Shown here in pieces: positions 1,278 to 41,960 of a stretch of 64,000 bases of DNA. The notes beneath the pieces were generated by a model that had not been told where the DNA came from, searched no databases, and worked only from the letters and a program-made list of their open reading frames with translations. Every line of letters starts with the position of its first letter. Position 1 is the first letter of the stretch. The position numbers were made by a program, and so were the translations under genes. This stretch comes from a virus, in the IMG/VR virus record IMGVR_UViG_3300045988_179268, positions 224,001-288,000 of that record. One strand, given 5' to 3'.

Positions 1278-1340
1278 TATAGCTGAGTGTTTTTGTGGCG
1301 GGCAACCCCCTTTCTCGCGGTGGAGTTGCCCGCCACAACT

Positions 1341-10112: not shown

Positions 10113-11960
10113 TTGTCTACTACCCCCAACGAAACCCCAGCAACCTTCGCCAGCGCAAAGCGTAAGGTGGCAGGCGCAGTCATGCTGTCCGTTCTCACCC
10201 TTGGTGGTGGCTTCGGTGGCGCGGCAATGCTCAACGTAGCACACGCCGCCGAGGTAGCATCCGCTACCGCAACCACCCAGGCACGCACTGAAAGCACCGT
10301 AAACCTCACCACTAAGGATTTCACTGGCGAGGCACCCAAGGAAACTATTCAGAACTACGTGAACTGGGTTGTTAATCAGGATAAGGTTTCCCCTTTCTCC
10401 GCCGACAACACCACCACCTATAAGGTTAATGTGGCTGACCTTGTTGGCAAGGGGCTCACCATCAAGCCTGGTACACTACAGCTTGGCATTGGTGCTTACG
10501 GTGGTGCAGAGACTAGCTTCGACCTGCCCCTCTATGGCGAGCAGGATACTGCAATCCCCCGCGCTACCACCCTCCAGTATGGTTACGGTGACGGCGCGCC
10601 AATCACCGTAACTGCTAACGCTGATGGAACCATCAGCATCCCCCGCCCGGACGATGCAAAGATGGACATTAACGTCCTCTACTCCGTCGAGGTAGAAGGC
10701 GGTAAGACTGTCACGCAGATGATTACCATTAAGGCACCAAAACCTACTGTTGAGGCAGGTACATTTAGCGCCTCCACCACTCTTGGTGAGCTTGGCACAA
10801 CCAAGGACGCACCTACCGAAGTTAAGGCGAACGAGTCCGGTAAGGTAACTTTCACCTACACTAACAACTCGAAGCTGACTGCAACCACCGCAACGGGTAG
10901 CCCGAAGGATGACCAGAAGATTCATCTGACTATTGCGCGCGACGGTAACAACATTGAGCTTCCTGTAGTTGAGATTGCGCCCGGCGAAACGAAGACCTTC
11001 TCTGTCGAGAATATTGCCGCTTCCAGCAAGTCGGGCGAGGTGACGGGAGCTGACTTCAAGCTAACTGAGGCTTTGCCCCAGAACATTGAGTACATCTCCG
11101 CACGCCCCTGTGACCACCTTGCGGCTTCACCTATCATTGCTCCGTCCACAACAGCAGACTTCTTGAAGCTGTTCACCAGCGGCAATCATGAGCGAGTCGC
11201 ACCTATCCTCCCTGATGGTGCTACCGTGAACCTTCACGACGCTAAGGCTCCCGCAGACTATATCGGAACTTACAAGCTTGGTGGCGCATGTGGCGATGAC
11301 ACCTATGAGAGCTACATTAACCCTTATGATGGTCAAGTGGGCATTGGCTTCGGTGGCAGGGGCGCGTCCAACTACTACGGCTGGAACGACGTTAAGCAGA
11401 ACGTAACCGATTACAGCGTCTACGTTAAGCCTGTCGAGGTTGCAGAGCCTACTCCTGAGCCTACTCCTACGACAACCCCGACTCCTGAGGTAACCCCGGA
11501 ACCCACCCCGTCTGAGACTCCTATCGAGACTCCGGCACCTACTCCCAGCGAGTCTGCTACCCCGCCTGCTCCTACTGTAGAGCCTTCGCCGTCTACTCCG
11601 GCTGAGTCTCCTACCCCTGAGCCGGTTCCGACTAGCCCGACTGCCGTTCCTTCGGTAGACCCGACACCGACCGCTACCACTCCGGTCCCTTCGGCAAGCC
11701 CGTCTGAACCTGCTATTGAGAAGCCTTCGGAGCCTGGCGTGAAGCCGAGTGAGCCTGCTAAGCCTGTTGAGGCTAAAACTGGTCACGAGTTCGACTCTGC
11801 TAAGCCGGTTCTTGGCGGCATCCTTGGTGCCCTGGCTCTTGGCGCTGTAGCTGGTCTTTGGATTTTCGGCAGGAAGAAGAAGGGCGAGGCTGTGAAGCCT
11901 GAGGCTACCACTTCCGAGACTGATACTGAGGCTACTACTGAGGGAACTGACTCTAAGTAG
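10113..11960 (+). CDS. secreted/surface-anchored protein with Pro/Thr-rich stalk
   Basis: TTG start after AGGAGAG. Signal-peptide-like N-terminus (VMLSVLTLGGGFGGAAMLNVAHA), long PTPEPTP-type linker, C-terminal hydrophobic helix followed by GRKKKGE. Confidence 0.8.
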   Translation: MSTTPNETPATFASAKRKVAGAVMLSVLTLGGGFGGAAMLNVAHAAEVASATATTQARTESTVNLTTKDFTGEAPKETIQNYVNWVVNQDKVSPFSADNTTTYKVNVADLVGKGLTIKPGTLQLGIGAYGGAETSFDLPLYGEQDTAIPRATTLQYGYGDGAPITVTANADGTISIPRPDDAKMDINVLYSVEVEGGKTVTQMITIKAPKPTVEAGTFSASTTLGELGTTKDAPTEVKANESGKVTFTYTNNSKLTATTATGSPKDDQKIHLTIARDGNNIELPVVEIAPGETKTFSVENIAASSKSGEVTGADFKLTEALPQNIEYISARPCDHLAASPIIAPSTTADFLKLFTSGNHERVAPILPDGATVNLHDAKAPADYIGTYKLGGACGDDTYESYINPYDGQVGIGFGGRGASNYYGWNDVKQNVTDYSVYVKPVEVAEPTPEPTPTTTPTPEVTPEPTPSETPIETPAPTPSESATPPAPTVEPSPSTPAESPTPEPVPTSPTAVPSVDPTPTATTPVPSASPSEPAIEKPSEPGVKPSEPAKPVEAKTGHEFDSAKPVLGGILGALALGAVAGLWIFGRKKKGEAVKPEATTSETDTEATTEGTDSK

Positions 11961-12175
11961 TAAGTGAAGGGCGACCTTCATTTGTCCACCTGCTGTTGCC
12001 GGGTGGCGGTTAGGTTAGATTTCCGCCCAGTGTCGCGGCGCTAGTTCTGCCTGGTCGCCACCTGGCGTAGGTGGCGGGTGTTGCGGTCTACATTGTAGGT
12101 TGGCTTTAGTAACTTACCTACGTTGCGACGATTTGTGTAGACCGCATGTGCATAATTTCATAAGACACCGTTCAT

Positions 12176-12246
12176 AGGGGCTGAGTGTAATGTTAGGTTC
12201 TCACTGTTTATTGATTATCTAACACATACACTCAGCCCCTATTTTT
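12176..12246 (+). terminator. rho-independent terminator
   Basis: Long stem AGGGGCTGAGTGT..ACACTCAGCCCCT followed by ATTTTT, downstream of the surface protein gene. Confidence 0.75.
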
Positions 12247-12450
12247 GTGCGCACAATATATATCCAGGTGTATTAAACATGTGTGATAGAGATAACATGA
12301 CCGCACCTTCTAGATGGGTGTTTGTCCTGCATGGAGGGCGTATAATGAAAACGCCTGTGAGTATGCTGAAATTATGTATCTCCGCGCATTTTTGAGGTAC
12401 AATATACCTGGAACATCATTTATTTTCCGTCTATAGAAAGGAAGTGTCTT

Positions 12451-13437
12451 ATGGTGCGTAAGAAAAAGGAACAGTCGCAAGAAGATACCCTGCATGTTGA
12501 GCTTACCCCCGCCCGTAAGCTCAGGCAAGAAATCGCACAAAGCAACGCCTTACTGATTTATTCCCGACTAGGTTGGGGTGGTATTGGTCTACCCAAAAAC
12601 AATACGCCGCCTGTAGGTTCGCTAACCTTACAAAACGCCATCGTCCAGTACTACAACACTGTCACCAGTGCAACGACCTTAACGGACATAGAGCGAGCCT
12701 ACGCAGACCTACACCGTGAAACTGAGAACGCACTATATGAGCATTATCAGCACAGCGGCGTAACGAAAGAGGAACTGGCAAGCATCGCATCTGGAGAGAG
12801 GATTCTACAAATCATGACCGCTATCGACAAGAACGTAGGTTCTGACCCGACCATCAGTGAAGCTTTAGACACTGTTATTACCATGCGCAAAGCATTAGGT
12901 AACAGCGCCCTACCCATTATGGCGACCATCACTGACGCTAAACTCCTAGAAGCTGACATTAAGAACCTCAGTGACCGTATCGACTCCAACCTACGTGAAG
13001 AGAAGAGGCTCACCAATAAGGCGACGCTCAGTAACGAAGAGAAGAATCAGCTTGAGGTAATCCGCAAGACACTAACCCTTGACGCAATGCAAATCCGCGA
13101 TAAGGAACACCGCCTCAAGAACAACATCTCCATTCAAGACGGTTACCGTAACCTTATTGACGCGAAATCTGAACTCATCGACAAGGAAGAAGCCGCCCTC
13201 CTAAGCCTGCAAACCTATAAGCAGTACGAAAGCGACCAGGAACAGCTACAGCGAATCAGCCTCGCCCTGAACATGGGTGACAACACTGTAGACGGGCTAG
13301 ACTCGGCTGTGAACGCCGCAAGAGCAAGACTGCAAGCATGGGACGAGGTACGCAACAGCAGTATTGACGAAGCGAACAAAGAGTTTGCCATGATTGAAGC
13401 TGGTAACTACCTAGACGAACGCCGCCGCAACCTCTAA
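12451..13437 (+). CDS. hypothetical coiled-coil protein
   Basis: Long ORF with RBS GAAAGGAAG. Sequence is rich in heptad-like E/K/L/Q stretches. Confidence 0.75.
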   Translation: MVRKKKEQSQEDTLHVELTPARKLRQEIAQSNALLIYSRLGWGGIGLPKNNTPPVGSLTLQNAIVQYYNTVTSATTLTDIERAYADLHRETENALYEHYQHSGVTKEELASIASGERILQIMTAIDKNVGSDPTISEALDTVITMRKALGNSALPIMATITDAKLLEADIKNLSDRIDSNLREEKRLTNKATLSNEEKNQLEVIRKTLTLDAMQIRDKEHRLKNNISIQDGYRNLIDAKSELIDKEEAALLSLQTYKQYESDQEQLQRISLALNMGDNTVDGLDSAVNAARARLQAWDEVRNSSIDEANKEFAMIEAGNYLDERRRNL

Positions 13438-13525
13438 ACAACCAAACCTACTGGTGGGTGCCCGCACATACTTATATGATATGCGGGTGCCCACCACACA
13501 AACAGCCGCATGAAAGGTGGTGACA

Positions 13526-14287
13526 ATGACCAACGAAGAACCAAAAATTACCTTTGAAAGCATCCTGCAAAACTGGAACGCACATTATAACCCTATCGCT
13601 AAGGCGCAGACACAACAGCCCATTAAGGCATTAGAGTTAAGCGCCACCATGCGTAACCCCCAAACACCGGCAGGCACATACCCCGCGTTCGAAACCTACC
13701 TTGGTGTTGATGTACTCGAAAAGAAATGTCAGCTTAGACAAGAGAAGCGGCGAAAGCGTAAGGAAATCAGAGGGAAACTCTTTGACTTCCTGAAAGTTGT
13801 CATCACTATACTGCTTGTAGGTGGCGCAATCATCGGCGGTTTCATGTTCTTCAAGCCCAGCACCCCACAGAACACTAGCAATGGTGATATTCAAAACGTC
13901 CCTCAGGCGGCAGAAACCATTACAATAGCATCACCGACCACCACCACCTCGGCGGCACCCACCCCGACAGCGGTACCCGAAGGAACCGTAACGCCCACAG
14001 CGGACGCCACACCAGAACAGAAACACTGCCTTACCACCCCAACCAAATCTCCATTCTTGGACGGTAACGGTGCGTTACACTATGGAAAAGGCACTGGACA
14101 TGATTCATACTATGTTCCCGCCAATGAGGACTGTGGTGTGCGATACACGGCAGAGGACGGAAGTAGCTACCATGAAGAGGACGACAACTCAGTAGGTAAA
14201 GAGATTGCCAAAGCTATCCTCCTCATTGTGAGTGTAGCTATAGGCATGATTCTTCTCGTGATGTTCATTGCCATCCTCGCCATCTAG
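13526..14287 (+). CDS. membrane protein, paralog A
   Basis: ATG 13526 after AAAGGTGG. Shares RNPxTPxGTYPAFExxLGVxxLEKK, a TM helix, a T/P-rich linker and YYVPxNEDCGVRYT with the next gene. Has a second C-terminal TM helix. Confidence 0.75.
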   Translation: MTNEEPKITFESILQNWNAHYNPIAKAQTQQPIKALELSATMRNPQTPAGTYPAFETYLGVDVLEKKCQLRQEKRRKRKEIRGKLFDFLKVVITILLVGGAIIGGFMFFKPSTPQNTSNGDIQNVPQAAETITIASPTTTTSAAPTPTAVPEGTVTPTADATPEQKHCLTTPTKSPFLDGNGALHYGKGTGHDSYYVPANEDCGVRYTAEDGSSYHEEDDNSVGKEIAKAILLIVSVAIGMILLVMFIAILAI

Positions 14288-16036: not shown

Positions 16037-16046
16037 AAAAATATCA

Positions 16047-16189
16047 CACCTCGCCTGTGAGAGACGGGAGAGGTGGATAATCTAAACGGATAGGTGGCAT
16101 CGGTTACCTGTCAAGACCAGGATAACTGGCATCAGACAGTTTGAGGGTCACCGTTAAGGAAAATCCTTAACTCATCTACCGAATGACTC
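16047..16189 (+). ncRNA. scaffold RNA module S1
   Basis: Full copy: hairpin 1 CACCTCGCC..GGGAGAGGTG, AATCTAAACGG, GTCAAGACCAGGA, TGAGGGTCACCGT, hairpin TAAGGA/TCCTTA, terminal ..GAATGACTC. Confidence 0.75.
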
Positions 16190-16232
16190 TGGGTAATACG
16201 GATTAGCGGGGTAATCACCCTTGCCAGGAAGC

Positions 16233-16333
16233 GTATTCTCCGTACACGCGGGGATGACTCCGGTTTCTGCCCCGTAAATGGGTTAGCCTCATGGCACGCC
16301 GCATCGTATTCTCCGTACACGCGGGGATGACTC
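16233..16333 (+). CRISPR. mini-array: two identical 28-nt type I-E-like repeats
   Basis: GTATTCTCCGTACACGCGGGGATGACTC at 16233-16260 and 16306-16333. It forms a 7-bp stem TCTCCGT/GCGGGGA with a 4-nt loop. The spacer between the two repeats is 45 nt; 43 nt separate the S1 end from the first repeat. Confidence 0.75.
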
Positions 16334-16447
16334 TATAAACGGGTGGGCAACATTCGTGTCGCACGTCAAGACCAGGAGAGTTAGGTAACTAGCTTGAGGG
16401 TCACCGCCTAGTGAAACACTAGACCCACCCCGCGCAGGGGATGGCTC
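16334..16447 (+). ncRNA. scaffold RNA module S2 (hairpin 1 replaced by a CRISPR repeat)
   Basis: Starts TATAAACGGG directly after repeat 16306-16333. Carries GTCAAGACCAGGA, TGAGGGTCACCG and CTAGTG/CACTAG, and ends GCGCAGGGGATGGCTC. Confidence 0.7.
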
Positions 16448-16485
16448 CCCGAGTCAGCAACAGGCAACCCAGACATCTTAACCGC

Positions 16486-16568
16486 GTTCCCTATATACGC
16501 GGGATGACTCACAGGCTCACCCTCACATACTCGCTGGGTGGATTCTCCAACATACGTAGGGCTGGCTC
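16486..16568 (+). CRISPR. two degenerate repeats after S2
   Basis: GTTCCCTATATACGCGGGATGACTC (16486-16510) and GATTCTCCAACATACGTAGGGCTGGCTC (16541-16568). Spacers are 38 and 30 nt. Confidence 0.55.
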
Positions 16569-16604
16569 ATACCAGGTGTGTGACACAGATAACACAAAAT
16601 CAGG

Positions 16605-16634
16605 TTGCGTACCATGAAAAACATGTGGTACACT
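16605..16634 (+). promoter_or_regulatory. promoter (TTGCGT -35, TGGTACACT extended -10)
   Basis: -35/-10 spacing is about 18 nt. Homologous promoters sit at 17288, 18203 and 19933. Confidence 0.65.
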
Positions 16635-16718
16635 TGATATATAAGGCGCGGGGGTTTGAGAAAGCCGCCAATGCAAAGCTCATTGATAACTATATAGGGT
16701 AAAAACTATTGAACATAA
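16635..16718 (+). ncRNA. conserved leader L1 upstream of tRNA-Tyr
   Basis: About 84 nt between the promoter and the tRNA, homologous to 18233-18314 (shared ..GCAAAAGCTCATTGA.AAC..TATAG.GTAAA..). Confidence 0.3.
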
Positions 16719-16802
16719 GCCGCAGTGCCTGAGTTTGGAAAAAGGGGCTGACTGTAAATTAGCTGTCGTTCGACTACGGGGGTTCAAATCCCTCCTGCGG
16801 CA
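16719..16802 (+). tRNA. tRNA-Tyr (GTA)
   Basis: Acceptor GCCGCAG/CTGCGGC, anticodon arm GCTGA-CTGTAAA-TTAGC, long variable arm, T arm GGGGG-TTCAAAT-CCCTC. No encoded CCA. Confidence 0.85.
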
Positions 16803-16833
16803 CGCAACACATCATTAAGATGTGTTCTATATA

Positions 16834-16970
16834 CCTCGCCTGTTGGTGAGATGGGAGAGGTAGTAAAAATAAACGGGTAGGCAACAGTGTTTGTCACGCC
16901 AAAACCTGAAAAGCAGGTTATAGCCACAGGGCAATCTGGGCGCTCCTTGACCGTGCAACAAGGGGTCACC
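16834..16970 (+). ncRNA. divergent scaffold-like module S3
   Basis: Keeps hairpin 1 (CCTCGCCTG..GGGAGAGG), AAATAAACGGG and GGGGTCACC, but the middle differs and no repeat follows. Confidence 0.45.
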
Positions 16971-17030
16971 AAAAATCAAAGCACGGGTATGTTCAACACG
17001 TCAGCATAATTGAGTGCTGTGACCTCGACC

Positions 17031-17174
17031 TGCGAGGGGCGGGGAGGTCGAAAAAATAAATGGGCAGGCGGCTACCAGCTATCCTGTCAAGACCAGGAAG
17101 GCTGACGACAGTCAGCTGGAGGGTTACCGTCTAGTGAAACGCTAGACCCAACTCATATAGAGGAAATCCGGCTC
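17031..17174 (+). ncRNA. scaffold RNA module S4
   Basis: Hairpin 1 GACCTC..GAGGTC, AAATAAATGGG, GTCAAGACCAGGA, GGCTGAC/GTCAGCT, GGAGGGTTACCGT, CTAGTG/CGCTAG. Ends ..CCGGCTC. Confidence 0.7.
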
Positions 17175-17190
17175 AGTATATATCAGGGGT

Positions 17191-17260
17191 CACTTTCCCA
17201 TACACGCGAGGATGGCTCCATAGCGGGATGGTTGAAACCTCCCTACATGCGGGATGGCTC
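17191..17260 (+). CRISPR. two degenerate repeats after S4
   Basis: CACTTTCCCATACACGCGAGGATGGCTC (17191-17218) and CCTCCCTACATGCGGGATGGCTC (17238-17260). Intervening segments are short (16 and 19 nt). Confidence 0.5.
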
Positions 17261-17287
17261 CCGCAACAAAATAATACGAAACCAGGC

Positions 17288-17316
17288 TTGCAAACCACAA
17301 AAACATGTGGTACACT
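17288..17316 (+). promoter_or_regulatory. promoter (TTGCAA-17 nt-TACACT with TGG extension)
   Basis: CTTGCAAACCACAAAAACATGTGGTACACT. The -10 hexamer ends 11 nt before the first base of tRNA(UCA). Confidence 0.7.
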
Positions 17317-17327
17317 GGTTTACATAG

Positions 17328-17398
17328 GCCCATCTAGCTTAATGTAAAGCAACAGTCTTCAAAACTGTGAGATGTCGGTTCAAGTCCGGCGGTGGGTG
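17328..17398 (+). tRNA. tRNA with anticodon TCA (UGA-decoding; suppressor or reassignment tRNA)
   Basis: Acceptor GCCCATC/GGTGGGT (two G-U pairs), D arm GCTT-AATGTA-AAGC (short loop with no GG), anticodon arm ACAGT-CTTCAAA-ACTGT, variable GAGAT, T arm GTCGG-TTCAAGT-CCGGC. 71 nt. Confidence 0.7.
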
Positions 17399-17447
17399 CT
17401 TGCAAGTAACAAAACCGGAGTTCTAGCCGAAAGTGGCGTAACTTGCG

Positions 17448-17529
17448 GCGTGTAATGACCACGAAGGCAAGTGGCGAGCCCAGTTAGAATGGGCACGTAA
17501 TAGTAGGGGTCGGTTCCCTTCTACACGCT
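17448..17529 (+). tRNA. non-canonical tRNA-like element (anticodon-like loop GTTAGAA)
   Basis: Perfect 7-bp acceptor GCGTGTA/TACACGC, hairpin GCCCA-GTTAGAA-TGGGC, T-like arm AGGG-GTCGGTT-CCCT. The D region and junctions do not fit a standard cloverleaf. Confidence 0.3.
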
Positions 17530-17534
17530 CTACA

Positions 17535-17674
17535 CTCCTCGTCTGCGAGAGATTGGGAGAGGAGGATAATAAAAACGGGCGCTAACCGCGTCAAGACCAG
17601 GAAAGCCAACGATAGTCAGCTTGAGGGTCACCGTCTAGTGAAACACTAGACCCAGCCCACGTAAGGGGCGGCTC
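17535..17674 (+). ncRNA. scaffold RNA module S5
   Basis: Full copy ending ACGTAAGGGGCGGCTC. It is fused directly to a 5'-truncated tRNA-like sequence. Confidence 0.7.
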
Positions 17675-17728
17675 AAGAGCAGTGCTTTTACACAGCAAAG
17701 GTCGTGGGTTCAAATCCCTCACGAACCA
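17671..17728 (+). pseudogene. 5'-truncated tRNA-like fragment (Val TAC-like)
   Basis: GCTC-AA-GAGC, then TGCT-TTTACAC-AGCA, then GGTCGTGGGTTCAAATCCCTCACGA. No 5' acceptor strand is present. Its D-stem GCTC is the last 4 nt of S5. Confidence 0.35.
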
Positions 17729-17756
17729 CACTTGGTACCCTTTTATAGGGCATCAA

Positions 17757-17829
17757 GTCTCTTTAGCTCAGATAGTAGAGCGCCCGCCTGAAGAGCGGGA
17801 GGTCGCCAGTGCAAGCCTGGCAGGAGACA
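17757..17829 (+). tRNA. tRNA-Phe (GAA)
   Basis: Acceptor GTCTCTT/AGGAGAC, D arm GCTC-AGATAGTA-GAGC, anticodon arm CCCGC-CTGAAGA-GCGGG, T arm GCCAG-TGCAAGC-CTGGC. Confidence 0.85.
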
Positions 17830-17862
17830 CGTAAGCCCACCTATTTTTTCGGTGGTGCATTA

Positions 17863-18004
17863 CCTCTCGCCTGTGAGAGACGGGAGAGAGTGAAAACGGA
17901 CGGGCGGCTTCGGTTGCCTGTCAAGACCAGGAGAATTAACTTCGGTTAATTTGAGGGTTACCGTCTAGTAAAATACTTAGACCCACCCATGTATGGGAAG
18001 GCTC
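17863..18004 (+). ncRNA. scaffold RNA module S6
   Basis: Full copy with hairpins ATTAAC/GTTAAT and CTAGTA/TACTTAG. Ends ATGTATGGGAAGGCTC. Confidence 0.7.
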
Positions 18005-18037
18005 ATCCAGTCTACAGCTAAGAAAGCGCGCGGTGCA

Positions 18038-18064
18038 GTATTTCTTATATACACGGGATGGCTC
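18038..18064 (+). CRISPR. single degenerate repeat, 33 nt after S6
   Basis: GTATTTCTTATATACACGGGATGGCTC. The spacer 18005-18037 is exactly 33 nt. Confidence 0.55.
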
Positions 18065-18202
18065 TCTTACAGTCTGGTTCCTTTTTTGCGCCCATGTGGG
18101 CTGACTGGGAATTACTTATATGAAGAAAGAAGAGATGTGGCATCACTAACATGCACTGCTTTATCTCTGTTTTTTCAGTGACACAGATAACACAAAATCG
18201 AG

Positions 18203-18232
18203 TTGCAAACCACGAAAAACATGTGGTACACT
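18203..18232 (+). promoter_or_regulatory. promoter (TTGCAA -35, TGGTACACT)
   Basis: GTTGCAAACCACGAAAAACATGTGGTACACT, a paralog of 17288-17316. Confidence 0.7.
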
Positions 18233-18314
18233 TTATATATGAGACGTGAGGGCTTGAAAGAGTCCCCGACGCAAAAGCTCATTGAAAACCTTATAGAGTA
18301 AACTATTTAATCAA
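18233..18314 (+). ncRNA. conserved leader L2 upstream of tRNA-Tyr
   Basis: Homologous to L1 (16635-16718). Confidence 0.3.
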
Positions 18315-18398
18315 GCCGTTGTATCCAAGTGGTCAAAGGAAACTGTCTGTAAAACAGTCGCTATCGAAGCTTCGTGGGTTCGACTCCCTCCGGCGGCA
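18315..18398 (+). tRNA. tRNA-Tyr (GTA)
   Basis: Acceptor GCCGTTG/CGGCGGC (G-U pairs), anticodon arm ACTGT-CTGTAAA-ACAGT, long variable arm, T-loop TTCGACT. Confidence 0.8.
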
Positions 18399-18469
18399 CG
18401 AGACACATTACTAGAATGTGTTTAGCTACATCATCTATACGTGCTATAGTTGTTGCAGTAAATATTTTT

Positions 18470-18540
18470 GGCGTACTAGTTTAGTGGTAAAACCTCAGTC
18501 TTCCAAACTGATGATACGGGTTCGATTCCCGTGTACGCCT
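18470..18540 (+). tRNA. tRNA-Trp (CCA)
   Basis: Acceptor GGCGTAC/GTACGCC, D arm GTTT-AGTGGTA-AAAC, anticodon arm TCAGT-CTTCCAA-ACTGA, T arm ACGGG-TTCGATT-CCCGT. Confidence 0.85.
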
Positions 18541-18544
18541 CTAT

Positions 18545-18683
18545 GCTCCTCGCCTGTGAGAGACGGGAGAGGAGCTAAATCTAAACGGACACTCACGTGT
18601 CAAGACCAGGAGAGTTGGGCAACCTACTCAAGGGTTACCGTCAAAGTAAAGCTTTGGCACGCTCCGCATAAGGTCGATGACTT
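18545..18683 (+). ncRNA. scaffold RNA module S7
   Basis: Begins 5 nt after tRNA-Trp. Short hairpin 2 ACAC/GTGT and hairpin CAAAGT/GCTTTG. Ends GCATAAGGTCGATGACTT. Confidence 0.7.
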
Positions 18684-18751
18684 AGAGTAAGTATCTACAT
18701 GTTCTAAGTCATCGTGCGGGATTCGCGTCTCACTAAATCCTGCGTGTCTAA

Positions 18752-18777
18752 GGATTCTCCTTCTCATTAGAGAGACT
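18752..18777 (+). CRISPR. single highly degenerate repeat
   Basis: GGATTCTCCTTCTCATTAGAGAGACT keeps ATTCTCC and a TCTC/GAGA stem. Confidence 0.35.
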
Positions 18778-18818
18778 ATAGATGCGTTTTACATAATCTG
18801 AAATAACTAACACTTTAA

Positions 18819-18900
18819 GCGCTTGTGGCGGAATTGGCAGACGCGGCAGACTTAGAATCTGTTGTCAGCAGACGTGTGGGTTCGAGTCCCACCAGGCGCA
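18819..18900 (+). tRNA. tRNA-Leu (TAG)
   Basis: Acceptor GCGCTTG/CAGGCGC, anticodon arm GCAGA-CTTAGAA-TCTGT, long variable arm, T arm GTGGG-TTCGAGT-CCCAC. Confidence 0.85.
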
Positions 18901-18930
18901 CTTGGTGTCCACAAGTGCATGTGGGTGCCC

Positions 18931-19052
18931 GCTTCCGTATCCAAGCTAGGTTAAGGGGAGCGTCTTTCATGAGCCTTCTGCACATAACGGCTATGGGAGC
19001 GCTTGCGGTGCATGAGAGTGCCCGCGCGCCGGTTCAAATCCGGTCGGAAGCA
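18931..19052 (+). tRNA. atypical 122-nt tRNA-like RNA
   Basis: Perfect acceptor GCTTCCG/CGGAAGC, T arm GCCGG-TTCAAAT-CCGGT, D-like TCCAAGCTAGGTTAAGGGGA. The interior has two long hairpins and I found no standard 7-nt anticodon loop. Confidence 0.35.
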
Positions 19053-19083
19053 CGTAACGCCACCTACTATGGTGGCTTGTTAC

Positions 19084-19227
19084 TCACCTCGCCTATGAGA
19101 GATGGGAGAGGTGAATAATCTAAACGGACACTAACCATGTCAAGACCAGGAGAACTAGCTTACGCTGGTTAGAGGGTCACCGTCTAACAAAATGTTTAGA
19201 CCCGCCTCGTATTTATGGGGTAGGCTT
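19084..19227 (+). ncRNA. scaffold RNA module S8
   Basis: Full copy with hairpins AACTAGC/GCTGGTT and CTAACA/TGTTTAG. Ends TATGGGGTAGGCTT. No repeat follows. Confidence 0.7.
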
Positions 19228-19327
19228 TCAGCCTCATTAGGTAACCTATTGAGGCACCCTTATTGCAATAGGGGAGCCTTCGGGCTTCTGGCTTTTATCA
19301 CTCATTCTTTTGCGAGATTGAGTGTTG

Positions 19328-19339
19328 GTGTGGTATACT
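19328..19339 (+). promoter_or_regulatory. promoter-like extended -10 (GTGTGGTATACT)
   Basis: Variant of the motif, about 20 nt upstream of tRNA-Leu(TAA). Confidence 0.45.
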
Positions 19340-19358
19340 TATCATGCTTACTCTTTAG

Positions 19359-19438
19359 GCGCTTGTGGCGGAACTGGCAGACGCGGCGGACTTAAAATCC
19401 GCTTCTTCGGAGTGTGGGTTCGAGTCCCACCTGGCGCA
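19359..19438 (+). tRNA. tRNA-Leu (TAA)
   Basis: Acceptor GCGCTTG/CTGGCGC (one T-T mismatch), anticodon arm GCGGA-CTTAAAA-TCCGC, variable arm, T arm GTGGG-TTCGAGT-CCCAC. Confidence 0.8.
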
Positions 19439-19468
19439 CGCAACCACCCTTAACTGGGAGGTTTATAT

Positions 19469-19542
19469 TCCCTTGTAGCTCAATTGGCAGATGCGCCCGA
19501 CTGTTAATCGGGAGGTTACTGGTTCGAGTCCAGTCTGGGGAG
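19469..19542 (+). tRNA. tRNA-Asn (GTT)
   Basis: Acceptor TCCCTTG/CTGGGGA (one mismatch), anticodon arm CCCGA-CTGTTAA-TCGGG, T arm ACTGG-TTCGAGT-CCAGT. Confidence 0.8.
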
Positions 19543-19594
19543 CTTACGTCACTTATGCGTGGCGTTGATACCTTAGCTTTTTTGTTAAGGTTCT

Positions 19595-19670
19595 GGTCTG
19601 TTAGCTCAGTGTTGGTTAGAGCACCGCCCTGTCACGGCGGAGGCCGCGGGTTCGAGCCCCGTACAGACCG
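19595..19670 (+). tRNA. tRNA-Asp (GTC)
   Basis: Acceptor GGTCTGT/ACAGACC, anticodon arm CCGCC-CTGTCAC-GGCGG, T arm GCGGG-TTCGAGC-CCCGT. Confidence 0.9.
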
Positions 19671-19691
19671 CGTATAGTTTTTTTGGCTATG

Positions 19692-19831
19692 CCTCTCGCC
19701 TGTGAGAGACGGGAGAGAGTAAAAACGGACAGGTAGCTTCGGTTACCTGTCAAGACCAGGATAGCGGGGTAACCTGCTTGAGGGTCACCGTCTGACAAAA
19801 TGTTAGACCCAGCCCACGTAGGGGATGGCTC
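19692..19831 (+). ncRNA. scaffold RNA module S9
   Basis: Full copy with hairpins AGCGGG/CCTGCT and CTGACA/TGTTAG. Ends CCCACGTAGGGGATGGCTC. Confidence 0.75.
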
Positions 19832-19864
19832 CTTGGACTCGAAGTTTTGACGAATAGGGAGTCC

Positions 19865-19892
19865 GTTTTCCCAGCACACGCGGGAGTGGCTC
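19865..19892 (+). CRISPR. single repeat, 33 nt after S9
   Basis: GTTTTCCCAGCACACGCGGGAGTGGCTC (28 nt). The spacer 19832-19864 is exactly 33 nt. Confidence 0.65.
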
Positions 19893-19932
19893 ACCGTGAC
19901 CTCCTGTGTGATACAGGTAACATAAAAACGGC

Positions 19933-19962
19933 TTGCATACCATAGAAACTATATGGTACACT
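19933..19962 (+). promoter_or_regulatory. promoter (TTGCAT -35, TGGTACACT)
   Basis: GCTTGCATACCATAGAAACTATATGGTACACT upstream of the Thr-Ala-Lys tRNA block. Confidence 0.65.
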
Positions 19963-20029
19963 TGCTATATATGGTTCGGGGAAACCTGAAAGACCGATAC
20001 GCTATTTCTTAATTGAATGAATTTTTTTT

Positions 20030-20103
20030 GCCTCCTTAGCTCAGTTGGTTAGAGCATCTGTCTTGTAAACAGAGGGTCGCCGGTTCGACTCCGGCAGGAG
20101 GCT
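20030..20103 (+). tRNA. tRNA-Thr (TGT)
   Basis: Acceptor GCCTCCT/AGGAGGC, anticodon arm TCTGT-CTTGTAA-ACAGA, T arm GCCGG-TTCGACT-CCGGC. Confidence 0.9.
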
Positions 20104-20139
20104 CGCTAAAGTAGATAGTTTTACTGTTTGCTTTTATGA

Positions 20140-20212
<73 letters not shown>

Positions 20213-20242
20213 CTCACACGCCTGTTGCAGGTTGTGTGTTAA

Positions 20243-20315
20243 GCGCCTTTAGCTCAGTCGGTAGAGCAGTGGACTTTTAATCCTCGGGTCGCGGGTTCGA
20301 GCCCCGCAGGGCGCA
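20243..20315 (+). tRNA. tRNA-Lys (TTT)
   Basis: Acceptor GCGCCTT/AGGGCGC, anticodon arm GTGGA-CTTTTAA-TCCTC (one mismatch), T arm GCGGG-TTCGAGC-CCCGC. Confidence 0.8.
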
Positions 20316-20552
20316 CGTAGCATGAAGGGATGTAGCTAATCCTTTCGTAATACACCGGATAAACACTATTCAGAAGGTCGTAGGTTAAAATCCTGCCACG
20401 TGCCACATTGCACGTGTAGCTCGGTGTTATAAGAGCGTCTGGACGGTGCCGGTTTAAGCCATACACAGGGGAAGTGACCTACACACTTCCATAGGGGTAG
20501 CGCCCCGGCTGTCTTGTAGGATAAGGGTACCTCTTAGCGGGGGTGCTCTCAT

Positions 20553-20628
20553 GGTCTGTTAGCTCAGTGTTGGTTAGAGCACCGCCCTGTCACGGCGGAG
20601 GTCGCGGGTTCAAGTCCCGTACAGACCG
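20553..20628 (+). tRNA. tRNA-Asp (GTC), second copy
   Basis: Near-identical to 19595-19670. T-loop is TTCAAGT. Confidence 0.9.
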
Positions 20629-20666
20629 CTTATATGGCGCACTGACCGCCTAAATAGTCAGTCTAA

Positions 20667-20740
20667 GCCCTTGTAACTCAGCTGGTTAGAGTGCCGCTCT
20701 GATAAGGCGGATGCCGGTGGTTCAAGTCCACCCAAGGGCA
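20667..20740 (+). tRNA. tRNA-Ile (GAT)
   Basis: Acceptor GCCCTTG/CAAGGGC, anticodon arm CCGCT-CTGATAA-GGCGG, T arm GGTGG-TTCAAGT-CCACC. Confidence 0.9.
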
Positions 20741-20742
20741 CT

Positions 20743-20814
20743 GTGTGTGAAGCCGGATAGCGAGGCGCTTGCTTGTGGCGCAAGTAGTAGCGGGTGCGAT
20801 TCCCGTCACACACC
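20743..20814 (+). tRNA. tRNA-His (GTG)
   Basis: Acceptor GTGTGTG/CACACAC with discriminator C, anticodon arm CTTGC-TTGTGGC-GCAAG, T arm GCGGG-TGCGATT-CCCGT. Confidence 0.8.
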
Positions 20815-20816
20815 CC

Positions 20817-20891
20817 GCTCCCCTAGTTCAGTCTGGATAGAACGCCGTGCTACGAACGCGGAGGTGGCAGGTTCAAATCCTGCGGGGAGCA
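20817..20891 (+). tRNA. tRNA-Arg (ACG)
   Basis: Acceptor GCTCCCC/GGGGAGC, anticodon arm CCGTG-CTACGAA-CGCGG, T arm GCAGG-TTCAAAT-CCTGC. Lies 2 nt after tRNA-His. Confidence 0.9.
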
Positions 20892-20924
20892 CGTAACAGC
20901 ACCTATTATGGTAGTGTGTTATAT

Positions 20925-21080
20925 ACCTCGCCTGTGAGAGACGGGAGAGGTGGTAAATCTAAACGGATAGGTGGCATCGGCTACCTGTCAAGACCAGGAT
21001 GGCGGGGCAACCTGCTTGAGGGTCACCGTCTAGTGAAACACTCAGACCCAACCCACATAAGGGAAAACGTAAGGTGAATC
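20925..21080 (+). ncRNA. scaffold RNA module S10
   Basis: Full copy nearly identical to S1 in its 5' half. The terminal part is extended (..CACATAAGGGAAAACGTAAGGTGAATC). Confidence 0.7.
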
Positions 21081-21121
21081 TATTTTGCGGCTTGACCCGG
21101 TATTAAGCCTAGTCAGGAAGA

Positions 21122-21205
21122 TTTTTCCCTACGCATGTGAGGCTGGCTCTACTCAGCCTAACATGCGTAGGCGACGTTTTCTCCGTACACGCGAGGGGAT
21201 GGCTC
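21122..21205 (+). CRISPR. two repeats after S10
   Basis: TTTTTCCCTACGCATGTGAGGCTGGCTC (21122-21149) and GTTTTCTCCGTACACGCGAGGGGATGGCTC (21176-21205). The 26-nt spacer is largely the reverse complement of the first repeat. Confidence 0.55.
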
Positions 21206-21288
21206 CGGCTAGGATACGCCCTTCAAGGCGGCGCTACTTTCTTTACATACATAGAAAGTCAGCTTTTATCAATATGCTCACAACATAT

Positions 21289-21361
21289 GCCCCCATCGTC
21301 TAGATGGTTAGGATACTACCCTTTCAAGGTAGAGATGCGGGTTCGAGTCCCGTTGGGGGTA
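21289..21361 (+). tRNA. tRNA-Glu (TTC)
   Basis: Acceptor GCCCCCA/TGGGGGT, anticodon arm CTACC-CTTTCAA-GGTAG, T arm GCGGG-TTCGAGT-CCCGT. Confidence 0.85.
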
Positions 21362-21496
21362 CGCAAGCTTCAAGAGTTATATTTGTAGCTTTTGGAAGCT
21401 GGCATGGGGTCATGCTGTTTTTATAGTTATGGTCACAATTTAACCTTTCGTTACATCGAGTAGCGGCTCGCCGTCTTGTTGGTTGCCGCTATTCTT

Positions 21497-21570
21497 ATCC
21501 CAGTAGCTCAGTGGATAGAGCGCCCGCCTCCTAAGCGGGGTCGTCACAGGTTCGACTCCTGTCTGGGATA
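21497..21570 (+). tRNA. tRNA-Arg (CCT)
   Basis: Acceptor ATCCCAG/CTGGGAT, anticodon arm CCCGC-CTCCTAA-GCGGG, T arm ACAGG-TTCGACT-CCTGT. Confidence 0.8.
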
Positions 21571-21604
21571 CTTTTAGGTAAACCTGTTTTTTAGGTTTAC
21601 CGTT

Positions 21605-21677
21605 GCCTCCTTAGCTCAGCGGATAGAGTACCCGATTCCGAGTCGGGTGGTCACAGGTTCGATTCCTGTAGGAGGCG
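21605..21677 (+). tRNA. tRNA-Arg (CCG)
   Basis: Acceptor GCCTCCT/AGGAGGC, anticodon arm CCCGA-TTCCGAG-TCGGG, T arm ACAGG-TTCGATT-CCTGT. Confidence 0.85.
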
Positions 21678-21678
21678 C

Positions 21679-21750
21679 GTCCCCGTGGTCTAATCGGGAG
21701 GATGCCGCTCTCTCAAGGCGGCGATGCGGGTTCGAGTCCCGTCGGGGGTA
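21679..21750 (+). tRNA. tRNA-Glu (CTC)
   Basis: Acceptor GTCCCCG/CGGGGGT, anticodon arm CCGCT-CTCTCAA-GGCGG, T arm GCGGG-TTCGAGT-CCCGT. Lies 1 nt after tRNA-Arg. Confidence 0.8.
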
Positions 21751-21874
21751 CGCTCATGCGCGGCTTTTTGTTGCGTGTGTTGTGGTGACTTTCGGTAGTT
21801 ACCTTTTTTGTACGGCTTGGGCTGGGTTTGGTTTTTCCTCACTTTTGCCTTACTCAGGTTTCTGGTCGTGTTTC

Positions 21875-21947
21875 GCGCTTTTAGCTCAGTTGGTAGAGCA
21901 AGGGACTCTTAATCCCTGGGTCGCGGGTTCGAGCCCCGCAGGGCGCA
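21875..21947 (+). tRNA. tRNA-Lys (CTT)
   Basis: Acceptor GCGCTTT/AGGGCGC, anticodon arm AGGGA-CTCTTAA-TCCCT, T arm GCGGG-TTCGAGC-CCCGC. Confidence 0.9.
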
Positions 21948-21976
21948 CGTAGCACATTCCTTTTGGGTGTGTTTAC

Positions 21977-22128
21977 TCACCTCGCCTGTGAGGGACTGGG
22001 AGAGGTGGCTAATCTAAACGGATGGGTAGCTTTGATTGCCTGTCAAGACCAGGAGAATCTGCCTTTGGTGGGTTTGAGGGTCACCGTCTAATAAAATATT
22101 AGACCCAACCCTGTGCAGGGGATGGCTC
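21977..22128 (+). ncRNA. scaffold RNA module S11
   Basis: Full copy (hairpin 1 variant ..TGTGAGGGACTGGGAGAGG, hairpin CTAATA/TATTAG). Ends TGTGCAGGGGATGGCTC. Confidence 0.75.
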
Positions 22129-22147
22129 GACAAAAAAGTCAGGCGGT

Positions 22148-22175
22148 GTTTTCCCTGTATACGCGGGGATGACTC
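22148..22175 (+). CRISPR. single repeat after S11
   Basis: GTTTTCCCTGTATACGCGGGGATGACTC. It is 19 nt after the S11 end, and 31 nt separate it from the 5' end of tRNA-Arg(TCT). Confidence 0.65.
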
Positions 22176-22206
22176 ACCGCTAATATGTACAATTCCATAC
22201 CTTTTT

Positions 22207-22279
22207 GCCCTAGTAGCTCAGGGGATAGAGCAGTCGCCTTCTAAGCGATTGGTCGCAGGTTCGAATCCTGCCTGGGGCA
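22207..22279 (+). tRNA. tRNA-Arg (TCT)
   Basis: Acceptor GCCCTAG/CTGGGGC, anticodon arm GTCGC-CTTCTAA-GCGAT, T arm GCAGG-TTCGAAT-CCTGC. Confidence 0.85.
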
Positions 22280-22306
22280 CGCTATATGCCTCAAGGTGTG
22301 TCGCAA

Positions 22307-22456
22307 CACCTCGCCTGTGAGGGACTGGGAGAGGTGGTTAATCTAAACGGGTGGGTGGCTTTGGTTGCCTGCCAAGACCAGGAAAGCTGGCTTCGGTCAG
22401 TTTGAGGGTCACCGTCAAAGTAAAACTTTGGCTCATCTACCGCATAAAGTGAATGG
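22307..22456 (+). ncRNA. scaffold RNA module S12
   Basis: Full copy with hairpins AGCTGGC/GTCAGTT and CAAAGT/ACTTTG. The terminal part is S1-like (CTCATCTACCGCATAAAGTGAATGG). Confidence 0.7.
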
Positions 22457-22496
22457 GAAATGTGGGTTGGCGAGGTGTTTATCCTTGTCAATAAGG

Positions 22497-22638
22497 ATTT
22501 TCCCCGTACACGCGGGGATGGCTCCTGGACCCTCAAACTTGCTAGAGTAGAGCACGTATTTTCCCCGTACACGCGGGGATGGCTCTAACGTCAAGCCTAT
22601 TAGCGTTTACGTTTTCCCTTGTATGCGTGGGGTGACTC
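22497..22638 (+). CRISPR. three-repeat mini-array after S12
   Basis: ATTTTCCCCGTACACGCGGGGATGGCTC twice (22497-22524, 22558-22585) with a 33-nt spacer, then GTTTTCCCTTGTATGCGTGGGGTGACTC (22611-22638) after 25 nt. 31 nt separate the last repeat from tRNA-Glu. Confidence 0.75.
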
Positions 22639-22669
22639 ACAATAACCCTTTTATATATTCACAACATAT

Positions 22670-22743
22670 GCCCCCGTGGTCTAATTGGTCAGGATGCCAC
22701 TTTCTCAAGGTGGGTGGTACGGGTTCGAGTCCCGTCGGGGGTA
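22670..22743 (+). tRNA. tRNA-Glu (CTC), second copy
   Basis: Acceptor GCCCCCG/CGGGGGT, anticodon arm CCACT-TTCTCAA-GGTGG, T arm ACGGG-TTCGAGT-CCCGT. Confidence 0.8.
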
Positions 22744-22775
22744 CGTTCATGCGCGGTTTTTGTTGCGTGTGTTTT

Positions 22776-22848
22776 GCGCTTTTAGCTCAGTTGGTAGAGC
22801 AACGGACTCTTAATCCGTGGGTCGCCGGTTCGAGTCCGGCAGGGCGCA
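22776..22848 (+). tRNA. tRNA-Lys (CTT), second copy
   Basis: Acceptor GCGCTTT/AGGGCGC, anticodon arm ACGGA-CTCTTAA-TCCGT, T arm GCCGG-TTCGAGT-CCGGC. Confidence 0.9.
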
Positions 22849-22877
22849 CGTAGCACATTCCTTTTGGGTGTGTTTAC

Positions 22878-23029
22878 TCACCTCGCCTGTGAGGGACTGG
22901 GAGAGGTGGCTAATCTAAACGGATGGGTAGCCTTTGGGTTGCCTGTCAAGACCAGGAAAATTAGCTTAGGCTGATTCGAGGGTCACCGTCTGGCAAAATG
23001 GCAGACCCACCCTTTGTAGGGGGCGGCTC
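22878..23029 (+). ncRNA. scaffold RNA module S13
   Basis: Near-duplicate of S11 in its 5' half. Hairpins AATTAGC/GCTGATT and CTGGCA/TGGCAG. Ends TTGTAGGGGGCGGCTC. Confidence 0.75.
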
Positions 23030-23062
23030 AGTGTTTGAGAATGAGGGTTGCGCCCTCAGCGA

Positions 23063-23076
23063 GTATTTCCCGTAAA
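23063..23076 (+). CRISPR. truncated repeat, 33 nt after S13
   Basis: GTATTTCCCGTAAA matches only the repeat 5' half. The spacer 23030-23062 is exactly 33 nt. Confidence 0.4.
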
Positions 23077-23098
23077 TATAATTACTATTTCACATTGT

Positions 23099-23172
23099 TC
23101 CCTTGTAGCTCAATTGGCAGATGCGCCCGACTGTTAATCGGGAGGTTGTAGGTTCGAGTCCTTCCGGGGGAG
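23099..23172 (+). tRNA. tRNA-Asn (GTT), second copy
   Basis: Acceptor TCCCTTG/CGGGGGA, anticodon arm CCCGA-CTGTTAA-TCGGG, T-loop TTCGAGT. Confidence 0.8.
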
Positions 23173-23188
23173 CTTTTAATATTGTGTT

Positions 23189-23224: not shown

Positions 23225-23274
23225 GTTGTATAATTGGTGTACCACATATTTTTTAGTTGAAAGGTTTTCATAGA

Positions 23275-24309: not shown

Positions 24310-24474
24310 ATAGCCTTTTTGGGGAGCTTGTCATACTTTTGTGTGGCAGGCTCCTTTTTGTGTGTTTTCCGGGTTTTGGGCGGGTTGGTGTGGTAGACTG
24401 GTGGTGGGGTTGCGTCGGGTCTTGACGTTGCCCCCTTTTTTCTATCTTTTTCTACTATTTTTTTGGAGGTTGTT

Positions 24475-25455: not shown

Positions 25456-25577
25456 CGCCTTTACCCGCTTTCGGGGGTATGGGTTTTGCGCTGTGGGGTG
25501 TTAGAATAAGGTGTGTTGCTTGTCCCCTTTTTGGGGTTCGGTGATGCACCTTATTCTTTTTTGTTTTTGGGAGGTTT

Positions 25578-41729: not shown

Positions 41730-41960
41730 ATGGATAACAACAATAATTTCCCGGTGTACGAGTCGGATAAGTACCCACGCCCAGCAGTAACCCCGGAAGA
41801 AGCTCTCGCCGTTGTGGAAGCTGGTATGGGTCTTGCGGGATACACATGCACCGACCCATACCTCAAGGAGCTACTGAGGCAGAGCGCGTATGGCGAAATT
41901 ACATTTGAGGAATACAGTGAGGCGTGTACTAAGTACATCCTTGGTGATGACCGCGCCTAA
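41730..41960 (+). CDS. small protein, possible VbhA-like antitoxin fold
   Basis: LAVVEAGMGLAGYTCTDPYLKELLRQSAYGEITFEEY resembles the VbhA pattern ..S.RLEG.ep.p......vvGEls.ed, but it lacks the inhibitory Glu. It is in the same frame as 40110..41711, with no stop after the TGA. Confidence 0.5.
   Translation: MDNNNNFPVYESDKYPRPAVTPEEALAVVEAGMGLAGYTCTDPYLKELLRQSAYGEITFEEYSEACTKYILGDDRA

Follow-up and report, generated by a model that had tools for sequence, protein, structure and literature searches.

The window examined here is a stretch of 64,000 nucleotides from IMG/VR record IMGVR_UViG_3300045988_179268 (positions 224,001 to 288,000), and it belongs to an uncultured phage with a genome of about 320 kb from a gut metagenome. 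According to ARAGORN it holds 27 tRNA genes, 25 of which lie in one array on the plus strand. The second gene of this array, a tRNA with the anticodon UCA, is the subject of the present analysis, together with the scarcity of TGA stop codons around it. The window and the flanking sequence of the same strain, called the UCA strain below, were read over 81 kb of the 319-kb contig; this part carries 65 genes, and no structural or lysis genes are recognisable within it. The features on which the argument depends are listed as follows.

16719-23173, plus strand: array of 25 tRNA genes with the UCA tRNA as second gene; the order Tyr-Trp-(Val)-Phe-Tyr-Gly-Leu... is conserved in relatives
17288-17316, plus strand: promoter-like site TTGCAA-N11-ATGTGGTACACT (-35 and extended -10), whose end lies 11 nt upstream of the tRNA
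17328-17398, plus strand: tRNA-Trp-derived tRNA with anticodon UCA (17359-17361; nucleotide 34 is the T at 17359), supported by ARAGORN, Rfam, the fold and orthology/synteny
1275-1286, plus strand: stop of gene 45-1277, TGA-TAT-AGC-TGA, with two TGAs (1275 and 1284-1286) two codons apart
1295-1336, plus strand: 12-bp GC-rich hairpin (GTGGCGGGCAAC...GTTGCCCGCCAC) between genes 45-1277 and 1341-2603
41709-41711, plus strand: TGA stop of the TnpB gene 40110-41711 (Pfam Cas12f1-like_TNB, phrog_506)
55000-55002, plus strand: TGA stop of gene 53296-55002, with a TAA four codons downstream

Identity and descent of the UCA tRNA

The original prediction had drawn a 71-nt cloverleaf with anticodon UCA at this place, and three methods agree with it. 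ARAGORN accepts the fold and calls the same anticodon (tca, at 17328-17399); the Rfam tRNA model RF00005 matches 17328-17398 with 60.6 bits, where the cutoff is 29, as for a canonical elongator tRNA; and the cloverleaf is the minimum-free-energy fold (-23.2 kcal/mol, z=-3.05). No family other than RF00005 was reported at 17328-17398, either at the gathering threshold or at E<=1. The acceptor, D, anticodon and T stems have 7, 4, 5 and 5 bp, the variable loop has 5 nt, and the anticodon loop is CUUCAAA; the discriminator is G73, the 1-72 pair is G.U, and no 3' CCA is encoded. The label SeC in the ARAGORN output derives from the anticodon alone. A selC-type tRNA-Sec has a long variable arm, an 8/5 or 9/4 acceptor/T branch, a 6-bp D stem and about 90 nt, and shares with the present tRNA only the anticodon UCA. 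With its 7/5 branch, 5-nt variable loop and length of 71 nt, the element is ruled out as tRNA-Sec, which bears out the earlier judgement.

If it is not tRNA-Sec, to which family does it belong? By sequence and positional orthology it descends from tRNA-Trp, while by decoding it departs from tRNA-Trp in having UCA instead of CCA, and as judged from its sequence it is best described as a predicted opal-suppressor or code-4-type Trp tRNA. Sequence and synteny place a tRNA-Trp(CCA) in the Tyr-Trp-Phe slot of 22 related loci (related loci are numbered L002 to L046 here). In L012, from IMG/VR, the array reads Lys-Tyr-Trp(CCA)-Val-Phe-Leu, and in the window it reads Tyr-UCA-Phe-Tyr-Gly-Leu. The two tRNAs of the slot can be aligned along their whole length. 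Their acceptor and D stems are identical save for one U.G/U-A switch in the acceptor, the T arm has one-sided changes in two stem pairs, the anticodon stem has two compensatory pairs, and the anticodon loop differs at nucleotide 34 alone. The tRNA-Trp(CCA) of L022 matches the UCA tRNA at 70 of 71 positions, the sole difference being C versus T at position 34, and the tRNA of L016 differs by nucleotide 34 and one T-loop base. Across the family-wide tRNA alignment 100% of the cells are paired, and the anticodon stem contains 2 compensatory pairs.

The same picture was given by searches with a sequence pattern that leaves nucleotide 34 free. The metagenome collection returned 15 loci, all with CCA, and IMG/VR returned only two known relatives, both with CCA; neither this pattern nor a relative of TnpB was found in 185,579 reference genomes. 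Six further genomes were reached through a neighbouring protein of 69 aa with identical sequence, and all of them have Trp(CCA) in the Tyr-Trp-Phe slot. Among them is CHEN22-1 (L036/L042), which is 94.4% identical to the window in nucleotides over 16 kb, and in general the closest relatives, at 90-94% nucleotide identity, carry CCA. The UCA allele was seen in one strain only, in two assemblies, the JGI contig and the Logan contig ERR589699_17286, the latter being 100% identical to the window over 16 kb. No tRNA-Trp(CCA) occurs in the 81 kb of the UCA strain. Because every other sampled family member has CCA, parsimony indicates that UCA is the derived state, and that it probably arose by a recent C-to-T (C34U) transition in a functional tRNA-Trp gene.

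The promoter in front of the tRNA was also compared with the relatives. The site at 17288-17316, TTGCAA-N17-TACACT, includes the 12-mer ATGTGGTACACT, of which the window has 17 copies with at most 1 mismatch, against 0.38 expected. The copies are nearly all on the coding strand and mostly immediately 5' of genes or tRNAs, and the full motif also stands upstream of the genes at 2758, 27060 and 29031.

2775, 15509, 16623, 17305, 18221, 27077, 29048, 36617, 47939 and 51482, plus strand: sites of ATGTGGTACACT, besides near-matches

The promoter is kept 5' of the Trp slot in 8 lineages, and since 7 of these carry CCA (L022, L039, L041-L045), it is older than the anticodon change. Inside the array the motif stands before tRNA-Tyr (at two places), before the Trp slot and before tRNA-Thr, which amounts to several promoters internal to the array. 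The tRNA had been described as having a dedicated promoter. The promoter itself is confirmed by its conservation, while its exclusive use is not: no terminator-like site lies between the UCA tRNA and tRNA-Phe, so that the promoter probably does not serve the UCA tRNA alone.

Stop codons and the reading of TGA

A gene call scored by codon usage gave 50 coding sequences (CDS) in the window, ending in TAA (28), TAG (19) and TGA (3). The depletion of TGA reported in the original prediction is thus reproduced, with the three cases exactly at 1275, 41709 and 55000. Is it a matter of composition? On the coding strand TGA outnumbers the two other stop trinucleotides, and 48% of the off-frame stop trinucleotides inside genes are TGA, which argues that the depletion is not compositional; on that expectation 3/50 has p=1e-10, and on an assumed share of 30% it has p=3e-5. 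Low GC can be excluded as a cause of the stop loss as well, because GC is about 49% in the window and TAG is abundant; in the family GC is about 47-53%.

The depletion was then compared between carriers of the two anticodons. TGA ends 3 of 65 genes in the UCA strain and 20 of 263 in the other family members after de-duplication (Fisher p=0.59), and 12 of 140 in contigs proven to carry CCA. In distant members, with about 50% protein identity and 50-53% GC, the counts are 2/23 (L034) and 2/16 (L035). Family-wide, over the window and L002-L046, TAG accounts for 38-41% of stops and TGA for 5-9%, at about 50% GC. Since TGA is equally rare in the CCA loci and at about 50% protein identity, its scarcity predates the anticodon change, and as far as these sequences tell, the TGA-poor, TAG-rich pattern is an old family trait. 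The causal link between UCA tRNA and TGA depletion, as it had been proposed, therefore does not hold, TGA being just as rare in the 22 CCA loci and in the distant family members.

Have the stops changed since the anticodon did? For 41 genes with C-terminally aligned orthologs of at least 80% identity, the TGA status differs in two, and in opposite directions: the gene at 53296-55002 ends in TGA here and in TAA in four relatives, while the gene at 60446-61210 ends in TAA here and in TGA in three relatives. In the 81 kb inspected, the stop codons have not been reshuffled since the anticodon change. The distance to the next backup stop is equal for TGA, TAA and TAG, with a median of 10 codons each. 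A following T is weakly favoured at TGA stops (8/19 versus 51/249; p=0.034, uncorrected). Genes for the release factors RF1 and RF2 and for tryptophanyl-tRNA synthetase (TrpRS) were looked for in the 81 kb, and none was found. The TAG-rich, TGA-poor usage suggests that something is unusual in termination, in the infected cell or in the host.

There is a further question, whether TGA is read as sense in this strain. When TGA is treated as a sense codon, the coverage by open reading frames (ORFs) rises from 73.6% to 76.4%, while the controls give 81.7% for TAG and 80.1% for TAA; the flanks and the relatives gave the same outcome. None of the 65 genes in the 81 kb contains an in-frame TGA sense codon or is split by a TGA, and coding-like sequence continues in frame upstream across a TGA in two genes only. 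With the gain for TGA the smallest of the three and no gene split, the suggested reassignment of UGA finds no support in the 81 kb. Among the features that mark recoded phages, the suppressor tRNA is present, while in-frame TGA aligned to Trp of homologs and a marked rise of coding density are absent. Matches to Pfam models of accessory RF1 or TrpRS, which are optional in such phages, are absent from the 58 proteins scanned. In the accessible quarter of its genome, the strain is not a member of the recoded-phage class. A host using code 4 or code 25 was ruled out also, with TGA a conserved terminator in several family genes and with no TGA sense codons in the 81 kb.

The three TGA stops deserve separate treatment. 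The second TGA of the first gene (1284-1286) is followed by an in-frame ORF at 1287-2603. The stop TGA-TAT-AGC-TGA recurs in CHEN22-1 (L036); in L037 the codon of 1275 is TAA and the second TGA is replaced by TGG. The stem of the hairpin at 1295-1336 is conserved in L036 and L037 with a different loop, and there the promoter core ATGTGGTACACT comes next. Because a hairpin and, in these relatives, a promoter core lie between them, 45-1277 and the next gene are two transcription units. Past the TnpB stop at 41709 there is an open in-frame stretch of 82 codons, which contains a 76-aa ORF (41730-41960) with its own ATG; this TGA is conserved in the orthologs of the CCA genomes L018 and L027. At 55000, the orthologs in L002-L005 (92-94% identity) carry TAA in this position. 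Each of the three TGAs thus has a stop opposite it in relatives, TAA in two cases and a conserved TGA in one, and by this comparison all three are terminators; the in-frame ORFs behind them are genes of their own. It had been noted before that two of the TGAs are followed by open in-frame ORFs and the third by a TAA. The TAA after 55000 and the open ORF after 41709 are there, while the case of 1275 holds only if 1275 and 1284 are both read through.

Origin and meaning of the putative suppressor allele

What do these results mean for the UCA tRNA? We consider it probable, with good confidence, that a recent C34U change produced an opal-suppressor tRNA-Trp in one strain of a family of standard-code jumbo phages which was already poor in TGA. 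The bases A36-A37-A38 are the context for modification of A37. This context is retained, and so are the weak 1-72 pair and the discriminator G73; in E. coli, according to work cited in Borges et al. (bioRxiv 10.1101/2021.08.26.457843), tRNAs that suppress TGA are reported to receive tryptophan; thus the host TrpRS would still charge the UCA tRNA with tryptophan. In code-4 bacteria, too, the bacterial TrpRS accepts a tRNA-Trp with the UCA anticodon (PMC13462651). The charged tRNA would decode UGA, and also UGG by U.G wobble, so that it would act as an opal suppressor and tryptophan would be inserted at UGA in infected cells. The phage would tolerate the suppression since it depends on TGA in hardly any gene of its own. 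The cost of read-through would be a 5-residue tail at 55000, a fusion of TnpB at 41709, and at 1275/1284 an extension which needs two successive read-throughs. Host genes ending in TGA would be read through too, and a benefit of this to the phage is speculation. On the sequence evidence read-through is a plausible side effect of the UCA tRNA, and we lean towards an allele that is tolerated and recent rather than adaptive.

Several points weigh against the view of a recent suppressor allele and should be noticed. C34 is an identity element for TrpRS in E. coli, and charging may be reduced. The TGA at 55000 stands where four relatives have TAA, which is unexpected if an active suppressor selects strongly against TGA. 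The allele rests on two assemblies, which may not be independent. The 81 of 319 kb read contain no recognisable structural or lysis genes, in which recoded phages concentrate their in-frame stops. Moreover, a tRNA-Val gene beside the UCA tRNA is a truncated pseudogene, and local relaxation of selection is possible; the truncation means that this part of the array is being remodelled, and a merely tolerated mutation is then a serious possibility.

Other explanations can be weighed against these data. It is unlikely that we see a very early change of the code from UGA stop to tryptophan, with the ancestral state still circulating. The avoidance of TGA would then come from chronically leaky UGA termination, one possible cause being that the family tRNA-Trp is expressed from its own conserved promoter, and the first TGA sense codons would lie in the unread three quarters of the genome. 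Rather unlikely, and a little more so, is a strain that is already partly recoded in a code 4-like way, with TGA sense codons in late genes (for structure or lysis) of the other 238 kb which are translated by tRNA(UCA). Recoded phages do keep the standard code in early and replication genes and place in-frame stops in late genes (bioRxiv 10.1101/2021.08.26.457843), the window with its tRNAs, RNA ligase, AAA ATPases and TnpB looks early or auxiliary, and TGA stops are nearly absent. Yet 0 of 65 genes have an in-frame TGA, the gain in coverage is the smallest of three, TGA still terminates genes, including one where close relatives have TAA, the 81 kb yielded no gene for RF1 or TrpRS, and the CCA of the closest relatives implies that little time has passed. 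Quite improbable is the idea that C34U serves as an escape from, or a decoy for, a host anticodon nuclease acting on tRNA-Trp CCA, with UGG read by wobble and UGA suppression as a side effect. Many tRNAs of the array are multi-copy (Lys, Arg, Glu, Tyr, Asn and Asp), and an Rnl1-type RNA ligase and a kinase/phosphatase gene lie near it, which would suit such a conflict, but the change occurs in one strain only. In addition, the anticodon-loop escape mutations described in phage tRNAs usually keep the decoding identity.

The tRNA had also been thought to serve regulated C-terminal extensions or fusions, joining 45-1277 with 1287-2603 and TnpB with 41730-41960. Two of the three TGA-terminated genes are indeed followed by in-frame coding-like ORFs, though two of three in frame is expected by chance in about 26% of cases. 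The same TGA arrangements occur in carriers of CCA, which are unable to read TGA through (L018, L027 and CHEN22-1, L036/L042). L037 has TAA at 1275, four relatives have TAA at 55000, the first gene pair is separated by the GC-rich hairpin and a promoter core, and its extension requires the two successive read-throughs. Such a role is thus very improbable. Finally, the T at position 34 is a single base from two samples that might not be independent, and it could be an error of sequencing or assembly or a minor variant picked by the assembler. The same base came out of two pipelines, the JGI contig and Logan ERR589699, identical over 16 kb, and a third dataset (SRR31358989) contains the strain-specific neighbouring protein, so that we give an artefact hardly any credence.

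A recent suppressor allele can be placed beside known systems. In the model of Borges et al., a stop codon is lost, then a suppressor tRNA is acquired, and then in-frame stops appear in late genes; the standard-code relatives of their TGA-recoded "Agate" phages have 4 TGA stops among 146 (bioRxiv 10.1101/2021.08.26.457843, published later in Nat Microbiol). The present strain resembles these standard-code phages in its standard code, the few percent of TGA stops, a phage tRNA(UCA) of predicted Trp identity and its gut metagenome source. It shows what that model expects before recoding, namely the standard code, depletion of the target stop and the suppressor tRNA, save that a low GC with TAA preferred over both TAG and TGA is absent: with GC at about 49% and TAG at 38-41% of stops, low GC is no explanation here. 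It differs also in that no TGA-recoded relative was seen among the sampled family members, some 25 contigs of which 14-21 kb each were read, in its jumbo genome of about 320 kb, and in the origin of the suppressor, which came from one C-to-T change in a resident, syntenic tRNA-Trp and not from acquisition. By analogy, the strain would fit an intermediate state in which the rare stop comes first and the suppressor tRNA second, apart from its balanced GC.

A tRNA-Trp(UCA) is the canonical marker of UGA-to-Trp decoding (PMC13462651). The tRNA-Trp(UCA) of code-4 bacteria, such as the Mycoplasmatales and the Eggerthellaceae Equivita and Gorillivita (Parks et al. 2026, PMC13462651), likewise has a tRNA-Trp backbone with UCA derived from CCA. 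In those bacteria in-frame TGA is abundant, RF2 has been lost and a CCA copy is usually retained as well (PMC13462651), while in the present strain the 81 kb show neither TGA sense codons nor a duplicate of the single, converted phage copy, and termination depends on the host. There are also UGA-reading variants of tRNA-Trp(CCA), namely the Hirsh D-arm suppressor and the form with a 4-bp anticodon stem in Blastocrithidia and Fastidiosibacteraceae XS4 (cited in PMC13462651). By comparison, the CCA tRNAs of the present family have a regular 5-bp anticodon stem, and the change here is in the anticodon itself. A parallel in mutation is offered by the laboratory opal suppressors derived from E. coli trpT, where the same single-base anticodon change to UCA gives a UGA suppressor that inserts tryptophan. 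The present one is a natural phage allele whose suppressor activity is predicted.

Then why does the allele matter? It forms a natural near-isogenic pair with its relatives, in which the same tRNA-Trp carries CCA or UCA in genomes 90-94% identical and on a background that avoids TGA. Such a pair suits an experimental test of how stop reassignment starts, by codon capture or through an ambiguous intermediate. A single transition in a resident tRNA may be enough to make a phage suppressor tRNA, with no horizontal transfer involved, and a stop may become rare before the suppressor appears even where GC is not low, for which the current phage model offers no explanation. For annotation there is a caution that a "Sup/SeC(tca)" call together with TGA depletion is insufficient ground for translating a genome with code 4.

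The phage family and other features of the locus

Exact-protein look-ups found related contigs of 145-375 kb in many metagenome assemblies, and a conserved 411-aa protein led to a family of about 90 protein clusters whose contigs are nearly all 260-375 kb. It is an uncultured family of jumbo phages with the standard genetic code. Most proteins of the window have no Pfam or PHROG family. No cultured relatives were found: megablast returned short tRNA stretches only, tblastn with two large proteins returned nothing useful, and an exact 39-mer scan of viral contigs gave no match. A blastn search of the UCA tRNA against phage records returned mixed isotype labels, which are uninformative on its identity. 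Hints at the host come only from Shine-Dalgarno motifs, sigma-70-like promoters and distant Bacillota homologs of TnpB (33-37% identity). Further features of the tRNA array and its surroundings are as follows.

26814 and 37289: two tRNAs outside the array, Leu and Met respectively (ARAGORN)
About 17670-17731, plus strand: 5'-truncated tRNA-Val(UAC) pseudogene, with a partial RF00005 match at 17670-17720 (28.9 bits, model positions 9-63)
16110, 16365, 17086, 17590, 17920, 18599, 19139, 19749, 20987, 22042, 22371 and 22945, plus strand: core motif of the spacer element
2859-4061, plus strand: T4 Rnl1-type RNA ligase (Pfam PF09511, 4.2e-13)

Compared with the intact tRNA-Val of L022, the pseudogene has lost the first 22 nt or so, the 5' third, and a spacer element has taken the place of the lost part. 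At 18931-19052 on the plus strand a 122-nt match to the full RF00005 model scores 35.7 bits, above the gathering score, and has no ARAGORN call; it could represent a degenerate copy or a tRNA interrupted by an insertion or an intron.

The spacers of the array contain a conserved element of about 150 nt, in 12 copies on the same strand (16046-23050, plus), which usually begin 20-35 nt past a tRNA 3' end. Its layout is CCTCGCCTGTGAGAGACGGGAGAGG...TAATCTAAACGG-hairpin-GTCAAGACCAGGA-hairpin-GAGGGTCACCG-hairpin-CCCA... RNAalifold predicts a multi-helix structure of 32 pairs, with compensatory double changes in 16 of the 32. All loci of the family that bear an array contain the core, GTCAAGACCAGGA ... 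GAGGGTCACCG; 13 loci are without a match, none of them covering the body of a tRNA array. No Rfam family matches it at the gathering threshold or at E<=1. On this predicted structure the element is a candidate for a structured RNA not yet described, which might be a ribozyme, a mobile element or a signal for processing, and in novelty it may exceed the UCA tRNA.

The RNA ligase belongs to what looks like an RNA-repair-type module, 13 kb from the array with its multiple Lys, Arg, Glu, Tyr, Asn and Asp tRNAs. Directly upstream of the window (L006 1-1123) a protein with a kinase domain (AAA_33) and a calcineurin-like metallophosphatase domain is encoded. The classic toolkit against anticodon nucleases is that of T4, where Pnkp and Rnl1 act against PrrC. 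An RNA ligase with a kinase/phosphatase is the toolkit expected of a phage facing host defences that cleave tRNA.

Two TnpB genes of the IS605 OrfB/Cas12f-like type lie at 6230-7384 and 40110-41711 on the plus strand, with no TnpA seen nearby, and a search for TnpB homologs returned no paralogs on the same contig. A third TnpB (521-523 aa), which the window strain is without, is present in L036, L039 and L041-L046 at about 11150-13790 of the locus, between a 136-aa gene and the head of the array. Further upstream (L006 2453-7113, directly before the window) there is a run of four tandem, weakly similar paralogs of about 360-400 aa with 19-25% identity; the genes 45-1277 and 1341-2603, next in order, are similar to them in size and have no detectable sequence similarity to the run. 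Downstream of the array, at 23257-26585 on the plus strand, three tandem Gly/Val-rich paralogs of 350, 330 and 335 aa all start with TTG. They share a C-terminal motif, Y-D-x-A-x-G-x-Y-x-x-P, match no known family, and have conserved orthologs in L016. These genes produce a strong local skew, with a GC skew of +0.29 and an AT skew of -0.35, and because of them a 336-aa ORF stays open on the opposite strand.

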